Below are positions 8 through 51,293 of a stretch of 64,000 nucleotides of DNA, in pieces. Source of the DNA: an uncultured Gammaproteobacteria bacterium (GTDB taxonomy: Bacteria; Patescibacteriota; Microgenomatia; Levybacterales; UBA12049); NCBI GenBank assembly GCA_964391315.1, contig CAYMJR010000003.1:64542-128541 (forward strand), written 5' to 3'. A program made the position numbers and the translations under genes. The notes under the pieces were generated by a model. It saw only the letters and a program-made list of their open reading frames with translations, was not told the origin of the DNA and ran no database searches. Numbering within the stretch: the first letter of the stretch is position 1; every line of letters starts with the position of its first letter.

Positions 8-97
8 GGAGGGATCGCATAGTGGACTAGTGCGCACGCTTGGAAAGCGTGTATGACCGCAAGGTTATCGGGGGTTCGAATCCCCCTCCCTCCGCCA
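8..97 (+). tRNA. tRNA-Ser (anticodon GGA), CCA encoded
   Basis: Hand-folded cloverleaf. Acceptor GGAGGGA (8-14) pairs with TCCCTCC (87-93). Anticodon stem CACGC/GCGTG with loop TTGGAAA. Long variable arm (class II). T-loop GGTTCGAATCC. Discriminator G94, then CCA 95-97. Resembles E. coli tRNA-Ser(GGA) as I recall it. Confidence 0.93.
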
Positions 98-144
98 GTT
101 TTTTACTTGACTTTACTCAACAAATCAATCACACTAAAATCACT

Positions 145-2448
145 ATGCGCAATCTGTCCCGCGTGTTTTTTCGTTGTTTGAGCCTCAGTCTCATCTTCAT
201 TTTCTTGTTGCCTACTTTTATCTCCGTAGCTCATGCCCAGACACCACCTCCTGCTGCTTATCAATTGGCTTCGCCAAATTTAGATCCAGATGTCCCCCAA
301 AATCAACATACATTTATTCAGTCGCTTTTTCTTGAGATGCTTTTGGCTGTAGATTGTCAACTGACTGGAATTGACCTTACTAATCCTTCTAAATCCTGTC
401 TTGGGCTAGATCTTAAAACAGGAAAACTTGGCTATGCACCATCTGATCTTTCCCAACAAAGTAGTCCTCAGATTGGCGGCCTCCTGGGAGTTGCGACGCA
501 AGGAATTAGCTCAATGTATACACCAACATTTGGATCCCATGAATATTTCAGTTACCTCTCAGATAACTTTGGCATTGTGAAACAAACACATGCAGCTCCC
601 TATACTGGCTTTCAGGGCCTACAACCTGTACTTGCGCTTTGGAAAACAACACGCGATATCTCATACTATCTGCTCATTGTTGCTTTTATTTTTATTGGCA
701 TCGGCGTGATGCTGCGTCTTAAAATTGACCCGCGAACAGTGATGACAGTACAAAATCAAATTCCCCGCGTGATTATCTGTATTATCCTGATCACCTTTTC
801 TTATGCTTTTGCAGGACTGATGATTGACGCAATGTGGACTGTGACATATATGGGTATCAACAAACTCACTGATACTGCAATTACTAATCCTCTAACAGTA
901 AGTAATACCGAACATCTCAATCAAACTGCAACAAAGGATGTCTTGAGTACTCCATTCGGTTTTGTTATGGATACTTTTCAGGCTCCTGGTGGTCTTAACG
1001 GTTTGGCAAACATTGGCTGGGGAGTAGGACAAGCACTTGGAAGAGTTGAATCAAGTGTTATCATTAGTCTCATTTTCGGCAATTCATCAGCAAGTTGTGG
1101 TTGGACTAACTTACAAGGCTGCATGCAATCTGTTTTAGGATGGATCTTTGGTTTTCTTTGGATGTTTATTGTTGCGATAGCTCTCTTGATTTCTCTATTT
1201 CGTATTTGGTTTGAGCTTCTCAGAGCTTATATTATGGTACTTATCTACGTTATCCTTGCTCCAATTTGGATTGTCTTTGGTCTATTACCAAAACGGCCAC
1301 TTGGCTTTGAGAGATGGCTTCGTGTTTTCTTTGCCAATTTAGCTGTCTTCCCTGCCACTGTCCTTCTTATTATTGGCGCACGAATACTTCACGAGCTCTT
1401 TAATAATTCAAATGTCTTAGGAATATCTACTGTTAGAGATACACCCGCTGTTTTACAAGCAGCTACGCAACTCCAATATCATTTTGTTCCTCCTCTTGTC
1501 GGTAATCCTGCAGAGAATAGCTTTGGGTCAATCCTTGAGTTTGGTGTATTCTTGATAACACCAGGAATTTTGAGTACTCTCCGTGAGAAACTCGGCGTAC
1601 CTCCAAACAAACAAGTGAGTCAAGGACTGCAAACATTTTCTGCAGCACGAGGAGCTGCCGGCGCACCTGCCAAGCAGACCATGAAGCACTTGAATAAACG
1701 AGATCAATATGGGAATGCTGTTGGACCTCTCGCTGTTGCGAGCGATAGAGCAACAAAATGGACAAGTCATAAAGTAAGTAAAGTCCCAGGTCTTTCTCTC
1801 TTTAGTAAGTCCGTAGACCAAAAAGATTGGCAAGCGCAACATTATGGCTCTATTGTCGGTTACGATAAAGCAGCACAAGATTATAAAACTGCACGCAATG
1901 CAGAAAAAGCAAAAGGTAAAGGTGCGCTTAAAGACTTTGACGACAAACATAAAGGAAGTGTTACAAATTGGGCACAAGCTACCGGTTGGTCCCAAAATAA
2001 TGGAGCAGTCAATCCTCCACACATTCCACCAACAGGAGGAGCGCCAACAGGAGGAGCACCAACAGGAGGAGCACCAACAGGAGGAGCACCAACAGGAGGA
2101 GCGCCAACGGGCGGAACACCACCAACAGGGCAGATGCCATCTGGTAAACTTACTATTAATATAAAAGGCCCTGGTGGAAAGGAACAATCAGTAACACTTC
2201 AAGGGAGAACTGATGTTGTCCGTGATTTTGTGATACCACACCTTCCTGATGAGAGTACTCCAGAAGGACAAGCAGCACGAGCAGAAATGAGGCAACATGC
2301 GGCTGATCCAGAATCTATGTTTAGCAAACATTTAGAGGACCTCACTCCAGAACAAGCTACTGATGTAGAACATTTTGTTAACAAATGGAATCCATCAGGC
2401 TCACATGGATCTGAGACAGGAGGAGAAGCTTCGGGAGGAACTGAATAA
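145..2448 (+). CDS. TrbL/VirB6-like polytopic membrane protein with C-terminal PTGGA-repeat tail
   Basis: ORF track 40..2448. Start moved to ATG 145 because codons 40-97 overlap tRNA-Ser and [31 protein letters not shown] reads as a signal peptide. Several long hydrophobic spans ([87 protein letters not shown]) precede a ~300-aa hydrophilic tail. Topology and neighbourhood suggest a VirB6/TrbL role; there is no motif-level proof. Confidence 0.5.
2029..2118 (+). repeat. 15-bp in-frame tandem repeat, 6 copies (CCAACAGGAGGAGCR), encoding (PTGGA)n
   Basis: Units counted by hand at 2029, 2044, 2059, 2074, 2089 and 2104. The first five differ only at the last base; the sixth is diverged (CCAACGGGCGGAACA). 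Confidence 0.95.
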
Positions 2449-2477: not shown

Positions 2478-5474
2478 CTAACTAGTGGCGCTCTTAAGGG
2501 ATTCCTTAGCAATAATACTAAACATCTTACCAATACCAAGCCCATCTTTGTCTGTTTTATCAAAAAGACTACTAAGCCACCATTTGAGATGGAATCCAAA
2601 TGGTCCAAGATCAACGCCAAGGACAACACCATTCAATGCCCTCTCCTTCAACCACGCGATATCCTCATCAGAAAAGAAATGTTCTTTAGCATTGACGCCA
2701 TATTTTTTTAATTCATCAATTTCGATATTTTTGCCTAAAATACCATTTTTCAATGCATCAATCGCATTGAGATAAAATACAGGACTGAGTCTAAGATCCG
2801 TGCTAAACATTTGTTGATGCCTATACATATCAGCAGCAATTTCAGTCAAAATGATTTGCTTTACGGCTTGAAGTCGTTGTTCAGCTGTTTGAATTTTATT
2901 AAAATCTATCTCATGAAGACCATTATGTTTGATATAATTTCCATTTTTATCCTGCTTCCAGAAGTCCTTACGATTTAGCTCGTCATACCCAAATACCAAC
3001 ATGCCAAGCTTACAATCTCGCCATTCTGCTTTTCCTGTTTTTGGATTGATAAATTGTCCACGCACGTCTTCATTAAAATTAGTATATTTATACTTTTTCC
3101 ACATATCCCGGACTTTACCAATCAAATCCCCCTGGATCTTTTGGATAAATTCCTGTCTTTCAAAACGGACACCTCCAAACGAATCAAAGTGAACAAACTT
3201 CCCAAAATCAATTCCTTCTCCTTTCATGACACGATTCATCCAGGTAAGACCTGGCTCCAAATGAACAGTAACATATTCACGTTGCGCATTCTCCAAGAAG
3301 TTAATCTGACCAACCTCATTCTGATACGTACTGTTAAACTCCTTTGTTCGCTGATCTAATTGCCGCATGATTCTCTCTTTTTCTTCAGGATTATCAACAG
3401 CCCGAAGCTCAAGATCCATAATGTTCAACACTTGCTGCTGATCAGTTCGAAGCTTATGTAAATCTTGTAAGGCTTCCAAGATAGATTTTGATCGTTCTCC
3501 AATATATCTTCCATAGTCATCATATACTGCTACTTTCTGTTCTGTGGTAATTGCCATCATCGGAATAATCGCAGCGGCCATATGCTTACCAAGTGTCAAT
3601 TCATTTCCATACGGTTTACCTTCACCTCTTGCGTATTTACGTCTGTTTGCATCAAGATAAAAGAACTTGCCCATCGCATCATGGACAGAAGGATTACCTG
3701 CATCATCATTTCTTGCACCTCCCCCCATGAGGCGGTTAAAGAACCATGCTTTTGCTTCAGTAAGTGACATACTCACTTCTACATTTTTCGCATGAATATT
3801 TAAGTTATATTTATGAGCTACTGAGTGAAGGATTGCGCGACGGACAATGAGTTCCAAAAACGCGTCAGGTAAATTGGTTGTGAAGAGGTTGATAAACTGA
3901 GTAAATTTCTTTCTATCTTTCAGTTTTCCTGTTTGGTCATCAAATGCTTCATCAAAAAGTTTTGCACGATCCGAAGACAAAATCGTGCTCCCACCAACAC
4001 CTTTTGCCATGCGCTCTCCAGTAACTTCTCTAATTGCGTCAAGAATACCATTTCTCGTAAAAAACGATGAGTCAGCACCAAGCACATTTTGTAATGCAGT
4101 AAAATCACCAAGATTATAATAGGCAAGCACCATTTCCACCCATGCGCTTCCGAGTTTGTTATCACTTAATGTTTTCCCTTTATTTTCGCCTGTTCTTCCT
4201 TCTCGGAAATCGAGCATATCTGACGCCAATTTCTGGATCAAATTTGTGCGGAAACCCAATTTAGTCAGCGGATTCATATAAGTCATTTTCTTATATTCCT
4301 CGACAAACACTTTCTCATCACTCATAGCCTGTCGATAATGGATATCCTGTTCGTAAAGGTTTTGGAATTGATTTATTTCCCACAAGACCTGTAACCACAA
4401 TTTTTGATATGTTGTCTGTCCGTCTTCACTATTAAATAGTTTCCCTCGCTGCTCAAGCATGCCGTCAAGAGTAAGCCCTGCAAATTGCTTACGAACTATA
4501 ATTTCATGTCCGAAATTAACAGGAGTATTTGGACCCTTAATATCATACAAATCTTCAACTTCTGTTCTAAACCAGAAAAGGAAATTCGATTCATTAATAT
4601 AATATTTTCCCCAACTTTTATCACCATGCTTCATATCTTCCTCCCTCTCCTCTTTTGTTTTCAGTCGTGCCTCAAGCAAAGCGAATTTGGCTCCAACCTT
4701 CCATGTGCTTGGGCTACCACTACCTCCAAGTCCCATTTGCCAAGCAAGCCCTTCAATACTATCAGGATCCAACTGAAACTCTTGCGAGTCACGAAGAGCC
4801 CTCCCAAAGATAGTACGGGTGGCACTCTTTTGTAAAAGAGGAAACACGTTTTCAAGAACTTGCTGTTGCCAGGCTCCTCCTCCATATCTTTGGTTCTCTG
4901 CACTGTTTAATATATCCTGATTTTCTGAAATGAGCTGAGAAGCTTCTTGTGAATCATATCCTGCCAATAACAGCGCATCAATAGTACGCGCAACCTGTTC
5001 ATCGGAGAACTTCAGCTTCTGCTTCAACGTCTGTTCAATACTTCCTTTTTGTTCAGTTTGCCAGCCATGTTCCTCCCAATCAGCTTCGGTAAATTTTGTT
5101 AGGTCAGTTACTTTACCGATAGGTGGTTTTTCCGTAATCTCTGCGTCTCTTGAGAGCTCTGCCATAATTTTTTCAAGTTTTTTTCCTGCAGCTCCATATT
5201 CAAATTCTTCTTTCTCTCCATGATGCTCTTCTTTATGTGGATCATTACCTCTTTGTCGTGATTGTTGTGTATTCTCTGGATTGCGGTTTGCTCGTCTCTC
5301 AGATCTTCTCTCTGTAGTATCCCCAGGCCGCGTACCATTCGAAACAAGAATATTGATTACTTGACGAACAGCAGATGTTAACGGGGTCCCTTCTCGCAGC
5401 ATATGCTGTTCCCATTCTTGACGAAGTTCATCTTGCTCATTTCTTGAATTTGTTTCTCCTGTTGGCTCTGACAT
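2478..5474 (-). CDS. hypothetical protein, 998 aa, no recognisable domain
   Basis: Single uninterrupted 998-codon frame. SD-like AGAGAGGA lies 8 nt upstream of ATG 5474 on the minus strand. Charged low-complexity N-terminus. No P-loop or clear TM helices seen. Co-directional with, and 85 bp downstream of, the ATPase-wHTH gene. Confidence 0.75.
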   Translation of the reverse strand: MSEPTGETNSRNEQDELRQEWEQHMLREGTPLTSAVRQVINILVSNGTRPGDTTERRSERRANRNPENTQQSRQRGNDPHKEEHHGEKEEFEYGAAGKKLEKIMAELSRDAEITEKPPIGKVTDLTKFTEADWEEHGWQTEQKGSIEQTLKQKLKFSDEQVARTIDALLLAGYDSQEASQLISENQDILNSAENQRYGGGAWQQQVLENVFPLLQKSATRTIFGRALRDSQEFQLDPDSIEGLAWQMGLGGSGSPSTWKVGAKFALLEARLKTKEEREEDMKHGDKSWGKYYINESNFLFWFRTEVEDLYDIKGPNTPVNFGHEIIVRKQFAGLTLDGMLEQRGKLFNSEDGQTTYQKLWLQVLWEINQFQNLYEQDIHYRQAMSDEKVFVEEYKKMTYMNPLTKLGFRTNLIQKLASDMLDFREGRTGENKGKTLSDNKLGSAWVEMVLAYYNLGDFTALQNVLGADSSFFTRNGILDAIREVTGERMAKGVGGSTILSSDRAKLFDEAFDDQTGKLKDRKKFTQFINLFTTNLPDAFLELIVRRAILHSVAHKYNLNIHAKNVEVSMSLTEAKAWFFNRLMGGGARNDDAGNPSVHDAMGKFFYLDANRRKYARGEGKPYGNELTLGKHMAAAIIPMMAITTEQKVAVYDDYGRYIGERSKSILEALQDLHKLRTDQQQVLNIMDLELRAVDNPEEKERIMRQLDQRTKEFNSTYQNEVGQINFLENAQREYVTVHLEPGLTWMNRVMKGEGIDFGKFVHFDSFGGVRFERQEFIQKIQGDLIGKVRDMWKKYKYTNFNEDVRGQFINPKTGKAEWRDCKLGMLVFGYDELNRKDFWKQDKNGNYIKHNGLHEIDFNKIQTAEQRLQAVKQIILTEIAADMYRHQQMFSTDLRLSPVFYLNAIDALKNGILGKNIEIDELKKYGVNAKEHFFSDEDIAWLKERALNGVVLGVDLGPFGFHLKWWLSSLFDKTDKDGLGIGKMFSIIAKESLKSATS

Positions 5475-43122: not shown

Positions 43123-44895
43123 ATGGACCAAGTAGCCCAAATCCGCGAAAAAATAGATATCGTCTCCTTTATTTCTGAATATATTACGTTAAAAAAGATG
43201 GGACGCAATTTCAAAGCAAATTGTCCGTTTCATGGCGAGAAAACTCCCTCATTTGTTGTCTCTCCTGAAAGACAGATATGGCATTGTTTTGGTTGCGGCA
43301 AAGGTGGGGATGTTTATACCTTTTTGATGGAATATGAAAAGCTGGAATTTGCCGAGGCGTTGCGGCTTCTTGCGAAACGAACGGGGATTGAGTTAGTTTC
43401 CCAAAAGGGAACAAGTGGTTTGACATCAAAGAAAGAACTTTTGTATGAAGTTAACAATTTTGCAAAAGAATTTTATCACTACGTTTTGACCAAACTCCCA
43501 GCAGGGAAAACAGCGCGCGAATATTTGGAAAAACGGGGAGTGACACAAAAAGTAATAGAAACCTTCAGACTTGGCTTTTCACCATCATCAGATCACGCAT
43601 TGGTTGATTACCTTGTTAAAAAGAAAAACTATAAAAGAGAAGACATTATTGAGGCTGGTCTTGCCTTTCAAGGAAGATCTGGGCTTGTCGATTTTTTCCG
43701 CGGACGATTGATGTTTCCGCTTATTGATCACCGGGACAATGTCGTCGGATTTGCAGGACGAGTACTGACAGGCGATGTGCCATCGAAATATATCAATACA
43801 CGAGAGACACTTGTTTATCATAAAGGAGAGCATGTTTTTGGACTCAATATCACGAAAGATGCGATCAGACGCGAGAAACAAGTGATATTGGTTGAAGGTG
43901 AGTTTGATGTCCTTTCCTGTTTTGAACATGGCATTGGCAATGTCGTTGCAGTTAAAGGGACAGCACTTACTGAACAGCAGGTGAATTTATTAGGAAGGTT
44001 TGTGTCAAAGATTACGTTTTGCTTTGATGGTGACAAAGCTGGGCAGGAAGCAATAAAGAGAAGTCTGCCGATTGTTGAGAAAAAAGGACTCTCTGTTACT
44101 GTTGTTGTTCCACCAAATGGTAAGGATGCGGATGAAGCATTACAAAATGATCCGGGAATATTTAAAAAAGCGGTAAAAGAAGAGAGTGGTGTGTATGACT
44201 ATCTTTTGCAAAAACTCGTCTCAGATAACGATACAGAGACCGCAGAGGGCAAAAAACAAGTTGTCTCGGAATTTCTTTCCTTTATTTCTTCAGTACAGAA
44301 TGAAGTCGTGAAAGAACATTATCTTCGAAAGTTGAGTACAGAAATTGGAACGTCTTATGAAAGTATTGCACGGGAACTTCAACGGATGTCACGAAATCAG
44401 ATTGCTGCTCCTGTACAGGTAGTAGAAAAGAAAAAACGTCCACGGGAAGAAATGTTGGAAGAATATCTGTTGGCTCTTATTATTCAAAGCGAGAAACCTA
44501 AAGAAACCTTGTCGCGGGTAGTTGCCATTCTTTCTGAAAGTATGAGCCGCGAACGAGCCTATCAAAAAATTCTTTCCCATCTTCTTGAGCATTTTCAGGG
44601 AAATGACCACTTTGATGGCAAACAATTTGGAGATGGTTTGCCAGCAGAACTTCTCTCGAGTTTTAATACTTCAGCATTATTTCCTTTGCCTACATTTTCT
44701 GATCCTAAAAATCTGTTGGAAGAGGTGGATAAGACAGCTTCCCATCTCAAGCGTTTTTATCTACAGAAACGATTGAAAGATTTGGCTCAAGAGATTAAAC
44801 AAAGAGAGACAGAAGGGCCAGAGGAGACAGAAGATCTCTCAGAATTGCGGAAAAAGTACTCAAATCTTGCCTCACAATTACAGGCTATCGAATAG
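43123..44895 (+). CDS. dnaG: DNA primase
   Basis: Zinc ribbon CPFHGEKTPSFVVSPERQIWHCFGCGKGGD. TOPRIM EGEFDVLS and FDGDKAG. Confidence 0.95.
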   Translation: MDQVAQIREKIDIVSFISEYITLKKMGRNFKANCPFHGEKTPSFVVSPERQIWHCFGCGKGGDVYTFLMEYEKLEFAEALRLLAKRTGIELVSQKGTSGLTSKKELLYEVNNFAKEFYHYVLTKLPAGKTAREYLEKRGVTQKVIETFRLGFSPSSDHALVDYLVKKKNYKREDIIEAGLAFQGRSGLVDFFRGRLMFPLIDHRDNVVGFAGRVLTGDVPSKYINTRETLVYHKGEHVFGLNITKDAIRREKQVILVEGEFDVLSCFEHGIGNVVAVKGTALTEQQVNLLGRFVSKITFCFDGDKAGQEAIKRSLPIVEKKGLSVTVVVPPNGKDADEALQNDPGIFKKAVKEESGVYDYLLQKLVSDNDTETAEGKKQVVSEFLSFISSVQNEVVKEHYLRKLSTEIGTSYESIARELQRMSRNQIAAPVQVVEKKKRPREEMLEEYLLALIIQSEKPKETLSRVVAILSESMSRERAYQKILSHLLEHFQGNDHFDGKQFGDGLPAELLSSFNTSALFPLPTFSDPKNLLEEVDKTASHLKRFYLQKRLKDLAQEIKQRETEGPEETEDLSELRKKYSNLASQLQAIE

Positions 44896-44920: not shown

Positions 44921-46003
44921 ATGTCCCAAAAGTTATCTCCGCTTCTGACGGATGTGGTCACATCCGCTAAAAAGCGTGGTTATATTACACAAGATGAAAT
45001 TTTAGGTATCTACTCCAAGCCTGAAGAGCATATCGAGGAGCTTGATAGTTTGTATGACAAATTGATTAAGTCCAATATTGATGTGTTTGAAACAATGGCG
45101 CAGCAGCAAGACGATCAAAAACCAATTGAGGATCTTGAGAAAGAACTTGAAGCGCTTACCGTTTTGACCGAAGGATCTGTTTCTGATCCTGTACGCATGT
45201 ATCTGAAGGAAATTGGTCGCATACCACTTCTTACCTTTGATGAAGAAATTGAACTTGCAAAGAAAGTTGAAGAAGGCAATGCGAATGCAAAGAAGAAGCT
45301 GATAAATTCTAACTTGCGTCTTGTTGTTTCTATTGCAAAGAAATATATCGGCCGGGGGTTATCACTTCTTGATTTGATCCAAGAAGGAAATCAAGGTCTT
45401 ATTCGTGCAGTTGAAAAATATGATTGGAGACGTGGATTTAAATTCTCAACCTATGCGACATGGTGGATTAGACAATCAGTTACCCGCGCGATTGCAGATC
45501 AGGCACGAACGATTCGTATCCCAGTTCACATGGTTGAAAATATTAATCGCTTCCTTCGCTCTCAGAGAAAACTGATGCAGGAACTTGGTCGTGAGCCAAC
45601 CCCTGAAGAAGTTGCAAAAGTTCTTGGAATTGAACCAGACAAAGCACTTGAGATTATTAAGATTTCGCAAAATCCAGCTTCTCTTGAAGCACCAGTCGGT
45701 GATGAAGAGGATAGCCGCTTGGGTGATTTCATTCACGATTCATCAGCACCAACGCTTTTTGACTCAGCATCACGTGAGCTTCTTAAGGAACAAGTAGAAC
45801 AAGTGCTGAACACCCTTTCTGACCGCGAGAGAAGAGTGATTGTTGAGCGGTTTGGTCTTAATGACGGTCGTCCAAAGACACTTGAAGAAGTTGGCCGCAT
45901 GTTCCAAGTTACCCGTGAGCGTATCCGCCAGATTGAAGCAAAAGCGCTCAGAAAGATGCGCCACCCATCCCGTGGCAACAAACTCCGCGATTATTTAGTT
46001 TAA
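44921..46003 (+). CDS. rpoD: RNA polymerase sigma-70 factor RpoD
   Basis: Region 2 [35 protein letters not shown]. Region 4 [28 protein letters not shown]. Confidence 0.95.
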
Positions 46004-48841: not shown

Positions 48842-49531
48842 TTGCAAAATGTTTCTGTTTCTAAAGATACACTTAGTCGGTGGTGTAAAGATATACAGTT
48901 AACAGAGAACCAGAAACAGAGGTTAATTAAAAATAAACAATTTGGACAAAAGAAAGGGTCATTGATAGCTGCTGAAAATAAGAGAAATAAAAGATTAAAC
49001 GCAATTACTGAAATCTATCGAAAAGCAAAGGATGATATTGGTGATCTTACTAAGAGAGATATGTTTTTAGTTGGTATTGCGCTCTATGCCGGAGAAGGTT
49101 ACAAGATGGATGGAAAAATCGGATTTACAAACGCTGATCCTAAAATAATATCATTTATGATGAACTGGTTCCTAGTTTTCGGAAAGATTCCTTTAGGGAA
49201 AGTTCGGGGTGCATTATGGTTGCATGAAGGATTAGACGAACAAAAAGCCAAGAAGTTTTGGTCAGAGCAAACAAGGATCCCTCTGGGGCAATTTCATAAG
49301 ACGTATATATCAAAAAATAAAGTAACAAGTAAAAAAATCCGAAAGAATATTCATGAGTATGGAATCTTTTCAATTCGTATTTCTGAAACTCAGCTCCATA
49401 GAAAAATAATGGGGTGGATTTATGCTACTTTAGATGATAAAATAACGAGTATATTCCGCGATAGCTCAATGGTAGAGCAAGAAGCTGTGTTAGCAGCGCT
49501 CGATAGAAATATCGAGATGAAAAGTGGGTGA
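48842..49531 (+). CDS. LAGLIDADG-type homing-endonuclease-like protein, apparently frameshifted near its 5' end
   Basis: FLVGIALYAGEGYKMDGKIGFTNADPKIISFMMNWF resembles a single LAGLIDADG motif plus its following strand. An HTH-like segment is split between frames: ATG 48765 gives MGYYGKLPQKTLAQKLRKKGLSYQEF (stop at 48900-02), and the 48842 frame continues NVSVSKDTLSRWCKDIQL. The last ~25 codons run through the tRNA-Asn 5' exon into the intron. Confidence 0.5.
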   Translation: MQNVSVSKDTLSRWCKDIQLTENQKQRLIKNKQFGQKKGSLIAAENKRNKRLNAITEIYRKAKDDIGDLTKRDMFLVGIALYAGEGYKMDGKIGFTNADPKIISFMMNWFLVFGKIPLGKVRGALWLHEGLDEQKAKKFWSEQTRIPLGQFHKTYISKNKVTSKKIRKNIHEYGIFSIRISETQLHRKIMGWIYATLDDKITSIFRDSSMVEQEAVLAALDRNIEMKSG

Positions 49532-49709
49532 ATTCAGGAGACATCTCGAAGGATAATCCTGAGCCAAGTCAGATACCGAATGGTATCTGGAAGGTGCAGA
49601 GACTAGGTGAGTACACCGTTAAGCGCCCACCACCTAAACCGAAAGGCATGGTGATGAGATAGTCCATTAAGTAACTTCGAGGTTCTAGGTTCGAGTCCTA
49701 GTCGCGGAG
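49455..49709 (+). tRNA. tRNA-Asn (GUU) interrupted by a 183-nt intron in the anticodon loop
   Basis: 5' exon 49455-49488: TCCGCGA TA GCTC AATGGTA GAGC A AGAAG CTGT. 3' exon 49672-49709: TAA CTTCG AGGTT CTAGG TTCGAGT CCTAG TCGCGGA G. Joined, the loop is CTGTTAA (anticodon GTT). U1-A72 and G73 as in E. coli tRNA-Asn. No encoded CCA. Confidence 0.88.
49489..49671 (+). mobile_element. ORF-less group I intron (IC3-like core)
   Basis: The 5' exon ends in U. P1 forms between exon GCTGT (49484-88) and guide GCAGC (49493-97), with a U-G wobble at the splice site. P2 hairpin CTCGATA-GAAA-TATCGAG (49499-49516). Core strings GAGCCAAG (49561), GAAGGTGCAGAGACTAG (49590-49606) and CCCACCACCTAA (49626-49637) resemble the Azoarcus tRNA-Ile intron core as I recall it. 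The last intron base is G (49671). Confidence 0.8.
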
Positions 49710-49838
49710 CACCGAAAGTTAGCCTCAAATCGGCTTGTTTCGTAGCCTCGATTTTTGTTTGACCTAAGTAGGATTCGAACCAAAATTATAGAACTTCAAT
49801 AAATTGGAACTCAAAATATTTCCCCACAAAGTAAGAAA

Positions 49839-51191
49839 TTAGAGGTGTCCTACGCAAGTGTTACCATCATTATTACTGTTTGTTCCGTCAGGACAGGTCG
49901 TATTTGACCAAGAAACTCCAGTAAGTGTCGTGCCGCTCAGATTAGCTTGCGTGAGATTTGCTCCAGTGAAGTTTACATTAGTAAGATTAGTATTTGAAAG
50001 ATTGGCTTTGGTTAAATCTGCATTAGTGAAATTAGATCCGGAAAGATTAGAGCCTGAAAAATTAGCTTGTGTTAAGGTAGCATTTGAAAAGTTAACATTT
50101 TGAAATTGAGCATTAGTGCCATTGACCTTAGTTAAGTCTTGGTTGCTAAAGTTAGCACCGTTGTAATTTGTATGTGAAAGATTTGCCTGAACAAGTCCGC
50201 CAGATGGGATAACTGCAATGACAGCTTGAGATGATCCTGTTAAGTTATTGTTATTAGTAACTAATAATTGCAGTGTGTATGATCCTAATGTGGTATAAGT
50301 GTGAGTATTCGTTACTGATCCTGAACCGTTGCTTTCTGTAACAGTCCCCGTGGAGGTATTAGTATCTCCCCACTTCCATAATACTGTGTCAGGAGCATCG
50401 CCTAGCATGAATGATGCTGAAAAGGTTGTTGATGTATTAATTTTTATTGGAGTAGGAGTCAAATTGATTGTGCCAACGCTTGGGGCAACATCATTAACGA
50501 TTACTGTTGCTGTTCCAGTTCCGATAGCTCCCTGATTGTCAGTTACTTTAACCGTAACAGTATAAGTGCCTTCATCAGTATATTGATGGCTTAAAGAGAA
50601 ATTCTGACCTGAAAGAGAAAGGTTTTGGATCCCTGATCCATCGCCATAATCGACTTTTGCCGTCCAGCTCGTTGAGTCTGAGTCAGTGAATGATCCGGAT
50701 GCAGTATAGGTACTACCCTCGTTTATGGTGGAGTTAGGAATTGAGTTGACAGTGGGTGGTTGGTTAGTTGGACAGGTACCTGTCCAAGGAATTATTTGAG
50801 ATTGTGTTAAAAATTCATCATTAACATCATACAATTCGAAATGTGCTTGGGTTGCTCCACAATCAGAAGGCATTCCTTGATTCGGATCAGTATATAAATT
50901 GTAGATAGTGCAGTGACTTGAAGTACAATTTATATTTCCAGCGAAGTTTCGATTTGTAGTCCAATAGTCCTGTTCACTGATATTTACAATATCGAAAATC
51001 TCAGGACAAAATCCATTACAAAATGTTGAGATATCCTGTGTAAGATCGATATTAGTATCAAAGTCTAATTGTCCAGTTGTAGGATTCCAGGACACATTAC
51101 TTGCGGTAAAACTAGAGTAAGCAAAAGAAGGAGCGGCAGTAAGTAAACCTACGAATATAAAGAATAAAAGTGTTAAAAATATTTTCCTCAT
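49839..51191 (-). CDS. secreted protein: two PKD-like domains + C-terminal pentapeptide repeats
   Basis: ORF track starts at GTG 51206; ATG 51191 gives the signal peptide MRKIFLTLLFFIFVGLLTAAPSFA. PKD-like VDYGDGSG...HQYTDEGTYTVTVKVTDNQG and WKWGDT...HTYTTLGSYTLQLLVTNNN. The tail ANFSNQDLTKVNGTNAQFQNVNFSNATLTQANFSGSNLSGSNFTNADLTKANLSNTNLTNVNFTGANLTQANLSG is a pentapeptide repeat. Confidence 0.75.
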   Translation of the reverse strand: MRKIFLTLLFFIFVGLLTAAPSFAYSSFTASNVSWNPTTGQLDFDTNIDLTQDISTFCNGFCPEIFDIVNISEQDYWTTNRNFAGNINCTSSHCTIYNLYTDPNQGMPSDCGATQAHFELYDVNDEFLTQSQIIPWTGTCPTNQPPTVNSIPNSTINEGSTYTASGSFTDSDSTSWTAKVDYGDGSGIQNLSLSGQNFSLSHQYTDEGTYTVTVKVTDNQGAIGTGTATVIVNDVAPSVGTINLTPTPIKINTSTTFSASFMLGDAPDTVLWKWGDTNTSTGTVTESNGSGSVTNTHTYTTLGSYTLQLLVTNNNNLTGSSQAVIAVIPSGGLVQANLSHTNYNGANFSNQDLTKVNGTNAQFQNVNFSNATLTQANFSGSNLSGSNFTNADLTKANLSNTNLTNVNFTGANLTQANLSGTTLTGVSWSNTTCPDGTNSNNDGNTCVGHL

Positions 51192-51293
51192 TATTTTACT
51201 AACCACTAAATATTTTAATCTTCCTCATTTATACCATACTAATATTAATCAATGTCAAGTAAAAGAAATGTCGTATTGCGGTGCTATGATCCA

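Follow-up and report, generated by a model that had tools for sequence, protein, structure and literature searches.

We examined a 64,000-nucleotide stretch of contig CAYMJR010000003.1 (GenBank assembly GCA_964391315.1, positions 64,542 to 128,541 of the forward strand), referred to here as the window and numbered from its first letter, in which a tRNA-Asn(GUU) gene is interrupted by 183 nt without an open reading frame (ORF). The 5' exon (49455-49488, TCCGCGATAGCTCAATGGTAGAGCAAGAAGCTGT) covers tRNA positions 1-35 and contains the 5' strand of the acceptor stem, the D arm, the 5' strand of the anticodon stem and the loop residues CUGU ending at U35, and the 3' exon (49672-49709, TAACTTCGAGGTTCTAGGTTCGAGTCCTAGTCGCGGAG) runs from U36 to G73. 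Both exons lie on the plus strand, as do all parts of the intron described below, and both were found by direct reading and by ARAGORN in intron mode; joined, they form a 72-nt cloverleaf with the anticodon loop CUGUUAA, a U1-A72 pair and the discriminator G73. The intervening sequence (49489-49671), which a match to Rfam family RF00028, its folding energy, covariation and homology all point to as a group I intron, begins GTTAGCAGC, terminates CATTAAG and sits between anticodon positions 35 and 36 in a reading of 49300-49900. The CCA end is not encoded, G73 being followed by CACC (49710-49713), and must therefore be added post-transcriptionally.

Given an excerpt of the locus, ARAGORN with intron detection called tRNA-Asn(gtt) with a 183-nt intron and placed the boundaries at exactly 49488/49489 and 49671/49672, and the artificially spliced sequence gave the same 73-base cloverleaf. 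The default ARAGORN run on the 64-kb window missed the split gene, its sole call being a tRNA-Ser at 8-97. The RF00028 model matched 49479-49681 on the plus strand over its full length with 55.6 bits (E = 2e-11), above the gathering score of 50 bits, and this was the single group I match in the window. The minimum free energy (MFE) of the intron was -56.9 kcal/mol (z = -4.0), a value reached by none of 200 shuffles, and the unconstrained MFE fold already held P2, P3, P4, P5, P6a, the hairpin after P7, and P8. A preliminary description of this DNA had read the same two tRNA halves with the same loop, U1-A72 pair and G73, had placed a compact, 183-nt, ORF-less group I intron after anticodon position 35, and had named an intron-aware tRNA search, the Rfam group I model and a structure built on covariation as ways to check it; the first two bore it out here, and ARAGORN, RF00028 and the covariation reported next agree on the element. 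A simple terminator scan around the tRNA showed no terminator-like hairpin, and blastn of 49300-49900 against phage records returned no match.

Related loci were collected by scanning one genome per species for the junction pattern TAGAGC-N6-CTGT-N-TTAGCAG (17 specified bases). The scan returned 73 loci with about 70 chance matches expected; about 22 were true homologs and about 50 were chance matches, which were removed by means of core motifs and ARAGORN. The true homologs shared a tRNA-Asn 5' half, the GTTAGCAGC start, a group I core and an end of the form GAGATAGTCC-N(4-7)-G/TAA, with the TAA followed by the complementary anticodon-stem strand. RF00028 scored 53-82 bits in 19 of the 19 homolog loci tested, always above the gathering score, and intron lengths in the subfamily ranged from 173 to 279 nt, with the 183 nt of the window ranking fifth shortest.

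For 20 precursors (alignment A1), a hand-built helix model was mapped onto the columns and the pairs were counted. Standard pairs were formed in 96.4% of cells, compared with 35-48% when the 3' partners were slid by 1-3 columns, and 28/61 pairs had changed on both sides against a shuffle mean of 17.3; the covariation score of 0.300 (shuffle mean 0.129) was reached by 0 of 500 column shuffles. Compensation in P2, P3, P5, P6a and P8 gave comparative backing to the P3-P8 core with its P3/P7 pseudoknot. P4, P6 and P7 were invariant or varied on one side only, and are uninformative because the catalytic core is expected to be fixed; P1 and P10 behaved in the same way, because the exon sequence fixes them. 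U-1, the guide GCAG, the P10 trinucleotide and omega-G were present in 23/23 members. The covariation-based structure anticipated in the preliminary description is thereby supported from P1 to P10 in 20 homologs, except for P9, which is absent.

The exons are conserved along with the intron. The 5' exon sequence was identical in the nearest relative (locus L053) and conserved across 23 homologs with compensatory stem changes, and the anticodon stem occurred in 10 versions that were mostly compensating, from which it follows that selection maintains the exons as a tRNA. In the window this stem carries an A.G mismatch at pair 27-43 (49481/49680), which, together with an RF00028 score near threshold and a view limited to 64 kb of the genome, might suit a decayed pseudogene or an intron no longer active, with a functional tRNA-Asn elsewhere. 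However, the mismatch is itself conserved: a purine-purine pair occupied 27:43 in 19/23 subfamily members, mostly as G.A and as A.G in the window and L053, which suggests a conserved, lineage-specific trait of tRNA-Asn in this subfamily. Decay also fits poorly with an architecture kept in more than 20 species with compensation in both intron helices and tRNA stems, with the invariance of the catalytic-core columns, U-1 and omega-G, and with the lack of an intact tRNA-Asn in any homolog locus, and we consider it highly improbable.

The helices of the intron follow the group I order. P1 (49484-49497) pairs GCUGU of the exon (49484-49488) with the guide GCAGC (49493-49497) across the loop GUUA and puts a U35.G wobble at the 5' splice site; four of its five pairs, including the U.G, were invariant in 20/20 precursors, and the fifth was G-C in 16/20. 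The first four intron nucleotides (GUUA, 49489-49492) are the 5' strand of P10 and pair with UAAC of the 3' exon (49672-49675), all four pairs being formed in 20/20 (100% paired), with G-U in place of G-C in sequences that have U at position 39. The P2 hairpin (49498-49517) was well supported by covariation, both partners having changed in 8/8 pairs and 98% of cells being paired, and its GAAA tetraloop (49506-49509) was found in 23/23. The exon-terminal U opposite the G of GCAGC, the GAAA-capped P2 and the terminal G, which had been singled out earlier as group I hallmarks, all proved invariant or covarying among 20-23 homologs. P3 is formed by GUGGGUG (49524-49530) and CGCCCAC (49624-49630) and lies in a pseudoknot with P7; its 7 pairs were 100% paired and 2/7 were compensatory (G-C to U-A; U-A to C-G).

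Within 49533-49563, P4 (49533-49538 with 49558-49563) surrounds J4/5, P5 (49543-49554) and J5/4, an assignment that rests on covariation and on invariant A residues (A62, A76 and A77 in precursor numbering); P4 was 98% paired and nearly invariant, and 3/4 pairs of P5 had changed on both sides. P6 (CC/GG) and the P6a hairpin take up 49564-49594, P6 being invariant and P6a having 7/7 aligned pairs changed on both sides. The 5' strand of P7 (49599-49605) consists of G, a bulged A and GACUA, and pairs with UAGUCC (49660-49665) through 6 pairs that were invariant in 20/20, including the G-C pair after the bulged A. P7 forms the guanosine site of group I introns and is presumed, by analogy, to be the guanosine-binding helix here as well. 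It is followed by a P7.1-like hairpin, GGUG-AGUA-CACC (49606-49617), with 4 pairs, 100% paired and 3/4 changed on both sides. The P8 hairpin (49631-49653) had a fully paired stem (100%) with one basal and two distal compensatory pairs, and contains the motif CCUAAA...CAUGG, which resembles the 11-nt GAAA-tetraloop receptor; the canonical CCUAAG...UAUGG was found in 3/23 homologs and a close variant in 14/23 (17/23 together), and on this model the motif is likely to be the docking site for the L2 GAAA loop. The last element (49660-49671) comprises the 3' strand of P7 and the tail AUUAAG, whose last base is omega-G (49671), and holds no P9 hairpin.

Introns of this type have been described before. 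Nakagawa, Amikura, Omae and Suzuki (mSystems January 2026, PMC13011429; preprint July 2025, 10.1101/2025.07.03.662931) found 15 tRNA-Asn(GUU) and 3 tRNA-Asp genes with 35/36 group I introns in 95 complete Patescibacteria genomes, and demonstrated precise, omega-G-dependent in vitro self-splicing of one Asn (GCA_016700035.1) and one Asp (GCA_001029755.1) intron. According to the same study, 35/36 insertions are enriched in Patescibacteria and are classed as IA, with none of the tRNA introns classed as IC, related introns also occupy the 35/36 site of tRNA-Asp and tRNA-Tyr, and standard tools either miss such genes or label them tRNA-Thr with an intron at 33/34. Williams (2020, bioRxiv 10.1101/2020.01.27.920355) had enlarged the set of known tRNA-intron types in bacteria from 4 to 21 by means of RF00028 and intron-aware ARAGORN, and one of these types is cited by Nakagawa et al. 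as 'Asn.4Ug'. The preliminary description had not counted Asn among the bacterial hosts known to it (Leu, fMet, Ile and Arg); neither the Asn host nor the 35/36 position is new, both having been published in 2020 (Asn.4Ug) and again in 2025-26 (PMC13011429). The tRNA-Asn host and the 35/36 site are already known, and the window copy is new as an unusually reduced member.

Our comparisons with individual published introns cover the accessible part of the Nakagawa supplement and of the Williams preprint. The window intron and the Nakagawa introns agree in host tRNA-Asn(GUU), 35/36 site, U-1, omega-G, lack of an ORF and phylum (Patescibacteria), and have a common core of GGGUGAAUUCAGG, CCUGAGCCAAG, AAGGUGCAGAGACUAG, AGCGCCC and GAUGAGAUAGUCC. 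The window intron was 71% identical to that of GCA_016700135.1 (Microgenomatia) and 60% identical to that of GCA_016700035.1 (Saccharimonadia), the one spliced in vitro, and an nhmmer profile of the subfamily gave 106.5 and 54.5 bits, respectively. The intron of GCA_016700135.1 has the identical GGUGAGUACACC hairpin and a second post-P7 hairpin besides the common one, whereas the window has a single 4-bp hairpin. Among the published sequences examined in the supplement, none begins GUUAGCAGC. The tFind type 'Asn.4Ug' and the window intron share the break after the fourth anticodon-loop nucleotide, U-1 and omega-G, and both were found through RF00028 and intron-aware ARAGORN; as far as the accessible part goes, the 2020 work is a catalogue only, without structural description or splicing test, whereas the window intron has a helix model.

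The mislabelling of such genes bears on where the boundaries lie. ARAGORN labelled several of our homologs Thr, a call that it and tFind often give for this family, and an ORF upstream (48842-49531, plus strand) runs through the 5' exon because the window has no stop codon before or within it, its TGA (49529-49531) falling inside the intron, so the region could also be read as a tRNA-Thr with a 33/34 intron or as the 3' end of that ORF. A 2-nt shift, however, would make omega an A and abolish the U.G wobble, both G73 and the anticodon GUU agree with Asn, and the 35/36 site was confirmed by in vitro sequencing of a relative (PMC13011429). We also rejected the ORF as an explanation of the locus, as the preliminary description had done: the position of its stop in the homologs varies between -20 and +19, counted from the tRNA start, and reading on into the tRNA is not a conserved property. 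Boundaries other than those given here are barely credible.

IA introns are recognised by P7.1, a hairpin between P7 and P3'; in the window a covarying hairpin occupies this position, with P7.2 absent. To assign a subgroup, we compared a profile hidden Markov model of the window subfamily with introns labelled by Nakagawa et al. (PMC13011429). Published Patescibacteria tRNA-Asn introns scored 54-106 bits and IA1- or IA2-labelled introns 63-81 bits, compared with 7-37 bits for IC3-labelled introns including a Nostoc tRNA-Leu control. Based on these comparisons, subgroup IA is favoured for the window intron.

The L9 tetraloop of the Azoarcus intron docks on P5. The preliminary description had found the core very close to this intron, that of tRNA-Ile and of subgroup IC3; the strings it named (GAGCCAAG, GAAGGUGCAGAGACUAG and CCACCUAA) are accurate and do occur in both introns, but they are common core motifs and the proposed affinity was not supported. 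Both are also introns in the anticodon loop of a bacterial tRNA that have a short P5, no ORF, and a short P2 whose GAAA loop is matched by a receptor of the 11-nt type in P8 (the L2-GAAA/P8 arrangement), with 53% identity over aligned columns to the Azoarcus sequence used for the comparison. Yet an Azoarcus-like IC3 intron newly arrived in a tRNA-Asn gene is very unlikely: the profile gave 7-37 bits to IC3-labelled introns against 63-106 bits to IA-labelled and Patescibacteria Asn introns, and none of the Patescibacteria tRNA introns of Nakagawa et al. is assigned to IC (PMC13011429). The intron of Azoarcus sp. BH72 tRNA-Ile(CAU) is 205 nt long and sits at 36/37, the window intron being 22 nt shorter and at 35/36, and has P9 and P9.0 among its canonical elements (PMC13168695). 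It has no hairpin between P7 and P3', unlike the window intron with its covarying P7.1-like hairpin there and no P9 or L9.

The distance from P7' to omega-G is 6 nt (AUUAAG) in the window, compared with 28-30 nt in the introns measured among the IA1/IA2-labelled and the published Patescibacteria ones and 44-53 nt in IC3 introns. In the published introns the 28-30-nt segment forms a P9 hairpin whose loop is of the GNRA type, kept in 22/22 of the tabulated Nakagawa introns (those containing a homing endonuclease gene were left out of the distance measure) and lacking in the window, where the RF00028 alignment marks its P9 part as non-pairing and extends it into the exon. P9 was lacking in 20/23 members of the subfamily, which have tails of 4-7 nt, while L006, L008 and L045 keep a 27-30-nt segment with a hairpin after P7', and L008 and L032 keep a second post-P7 hairpin; judged from these sequences, the subfamily appears to have undergone progressive reduction, losing P7.2 and P9. 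Substitute pairings of the 3' tail with J7.1/3 (2.9 vs 2.87 permuted) and with J2/3 (2.0 vs 1.96) were considered and rejected, matched and permuted partners being equally complementary and showing no covariation.

Engineered phage T4 sunY (nrdD) derivatives of the IA type that lack P9, the 'mini-ribozymes' with a core of about 180 nt, keep catalytic activity, and natural loss of P9 is plausible because they do. They are laboratory truncations assayed in trans, whereas the window intron is a natural, conserved form that presumably splices in cis within an essential tRNA gene. The P9-less members measure 173-198 nt, less than the 205-nt Azoarcus intron that has itself been termed 'compact' (PMC13168695), and the shortest of the subfamily, including the 183 nt of the window, fall below the 184-nt minimum of a survey of 333 bacterial tRNA introns (PMC13011429). 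We lean slightly towards a natural, conserved P9-less group I lineage of 173-198 nt that would splice itself precisely from an essential tRNA.

The sole serious rival is a real group I intron that, having lost P9 (and P7.2), no longer splices autonomously and needs a protein, another cofactor or favourable conditions in the cell. This would accord with the 6 nt between P7' and omega-G, where published relatives measured 28-30 nt, with a tail that has no compensating pairing, and with a published account in which P9 is 'essential' and a P9-less model 'very unusual' (PMC3873408). We nevertheless hold such dependence to be rather unlikely, in that the L2 GAAA loop and the P8 receptor-like motif are kept in 17/23 members, together with an invariant core and with P10 and omega-G both intact. 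Patescibacteria proteomes are moreover reduced, no gene linked to the locus is a candidate for such a cofactor, and the P9-deleted sunY derivatives stay active.

The window has a G+C content of 38.8% and carries chromosomal genes, among them dnaG (43123-44895) and a gene for a 360-aa RpoD (44921-46003), and also encodes a class I tRNA synthetase, a P-type ATPase, a glycosyltransferase and a TraG/HerA-like ATPase. In tblastx comparisons its RpoD was 88% identical to that of the Levybacteria metagenome-assembled genome (MAG) L060, 84-86% to those of the 'Patescibacteria group' MAGs L016 and L026, and 76-78% to those of MAGs from other Levybacteria and from Daviesbacteria; within the Patescibacteria, Levybacteria fall in the Microgenomates group. 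The nearest relative, L053, has an RpoD 92.6% identical to that of the window and identical tRNA exons, and is labelled 'uncultured Gammaproteobacteria', and the exact RpoD sequence was otherwise seen only on short Logan metagenome contigs. The order dnaG-rpoD, a conserved ORF further on and the split tRNA-Asn is common to the window and the recovered loci (tblastx). RpoD and this synteny with relatives indicate that the host is probably a Patescibacterium.

Taken together, the locus is very probably a functional tRNA-Asn(GUU) gene of a Microgenomates/Levybacteria-like Patescibacterium, split at 35/36 by a 183-nt group I intron that appears to be of the IA type. In the splicing pathway that we propose, the pre-tRNA would be transcribed, possibly with the conserved upstream gene, and P1 would present U35 as a U.G wobble while the P3-P8 core folds, with the GAAA of L2 docked in the receptor-like motif of P8 as a brace. 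An external guanosine bound at P7 would then cleave after U35, P10 (intron GUUA with U36-A37-A38-C39) would align the 3' exon, and omega-G (49671) would replace the cofactor in the G site, so that exon ligation restores the loop CUGUUAA. The P1 guide reads CUGU alone and would by inference fit every tRNA with G34-U35 (Asn, Asp, Tyr and His), in agreement with the related 35/36 introns in tRNA-Asp and tRNA-Tyr (PMC13011429).

Several points weigh against this reading. The invariance of P1, P4, P7 and P10 leaves covariation silent for or against these helices. The RF00028 score exceeded the gathering score by just 5.6 bits, since the window intron has nothing to match P9 of the model. The IA call comes from a proxy comparison and from the class given to the relatives in the paper, and not from subgroup covariance models. 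Catalysis by the P9-less window copy is deduced from its family and from an assayed relative, and the count of tRNA-Asn genes covers the 64-kb window.

Among the neighbouring genes, the upstream ORF (48842-49531) matched no Pfam or NCBIfam family and keeps its synteny with the tRNA across many loci of Patescibacteria, and their tight packing suggests co-transcription. A gene converging on the tRNA from the minus strand (49839-51206) encodes PKD domains and pentapeptide repeats, with a weak match to the CPR pilus protein PamR family. At the start of the window, an 802-aa ORF with a TTG start (40-2448, plus strand) has its start in doubt, because it overlaps the tRNA-Ser(GGA) at 8-97 and belongs to no Pfam family; its real start probably lies further downstream. 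A 998-aa ORF on the minus strand (2478-5474) likewise had no family.

The junction scan also reached contigs with unexpected labels. The same split tRNA-Asn was found in seven loci labelled 'uncultured Gammaproteobacteria' (L012, L020, L031, L045, L047, L053 and L072) and in one labelled 'Candidatus Eisenbacteria' (L044). Where rpoD fell inside the fetched locus (L012, L020, L044 and L053), RpoD was 72-93% identical to that of the window and the dnaG-rpoD synteny was kept (tblastx). The Gammaproteobacteria labels are doubtful because of this Patescibacteria-like RpoD and synteny, and the taxonomic labels of these eight MAG contigs are probably wrong. Locus L080 (IMGVR_UViG_3300024262_000414, 16.9 kb), classed as viral, has an array of at least 13 tRNA genes, including a tRNA-Asn(GUU) at 2922-3192 split by a 197-nt intron of the P9-less subfamily (RF00028 70.1 bits) and a second, uninterrupted and oddly long (91 nt) tRNA-Asn call at 1486-1576; the intron may be carried by a phage here, or a contig from Patescibacteria may have been misclassified. 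Locus L028 (2967-3320), from a groundwater MAG labelled Cyanobacteria, has a tRNA-Asn(GUU) with the GTTAGCAGC P1/P10 start and an intron body of 252 nt that is G+C-rich and without the AGACTA/ATAGTC core strings, and may represent a different intron lineage with the same site and guide. The pattern was also matched outside tRNA genes in seven Nostocales loci (L004, L009, L010, L013, L021, L023 and L050) sharing AATTG-CTGT-N-TTAGCAG and in 11 viral contigs (L076-L079 and L081-L087) sharing CAACRCCTAAACGCTKCATAGAGCC, with no group I core within 1.3 kb of these matches.

The interest of this intron rests on its minimal, P9-less form and not on its tRNA-Asn host or 35/36 site, and it is otherwise an expected feature of Patescibacteria genomes. 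Default tRNA finders miss the gene, so that a genome carrying it would seem to lack tRNA-Asn and be scored as less complete, a problem already raised by Nakagawa et al. (PMC13011429). If self-splicing of the P9-less forms is real, the lineage would be smaller than the 205-nt Azoarcus intron and below any of the 333 surveyed bacterial tRNA introns, and 173-198-nt forms that splice efficiently would provide a smaller natural group I scaffold than that of Azoarcus. The P9-bearing sisters in L006, L008 and L045 amount to a natural deletion series, and together with the P9-less forms they would then reveal how a supposedly essential peripheral element is lost.

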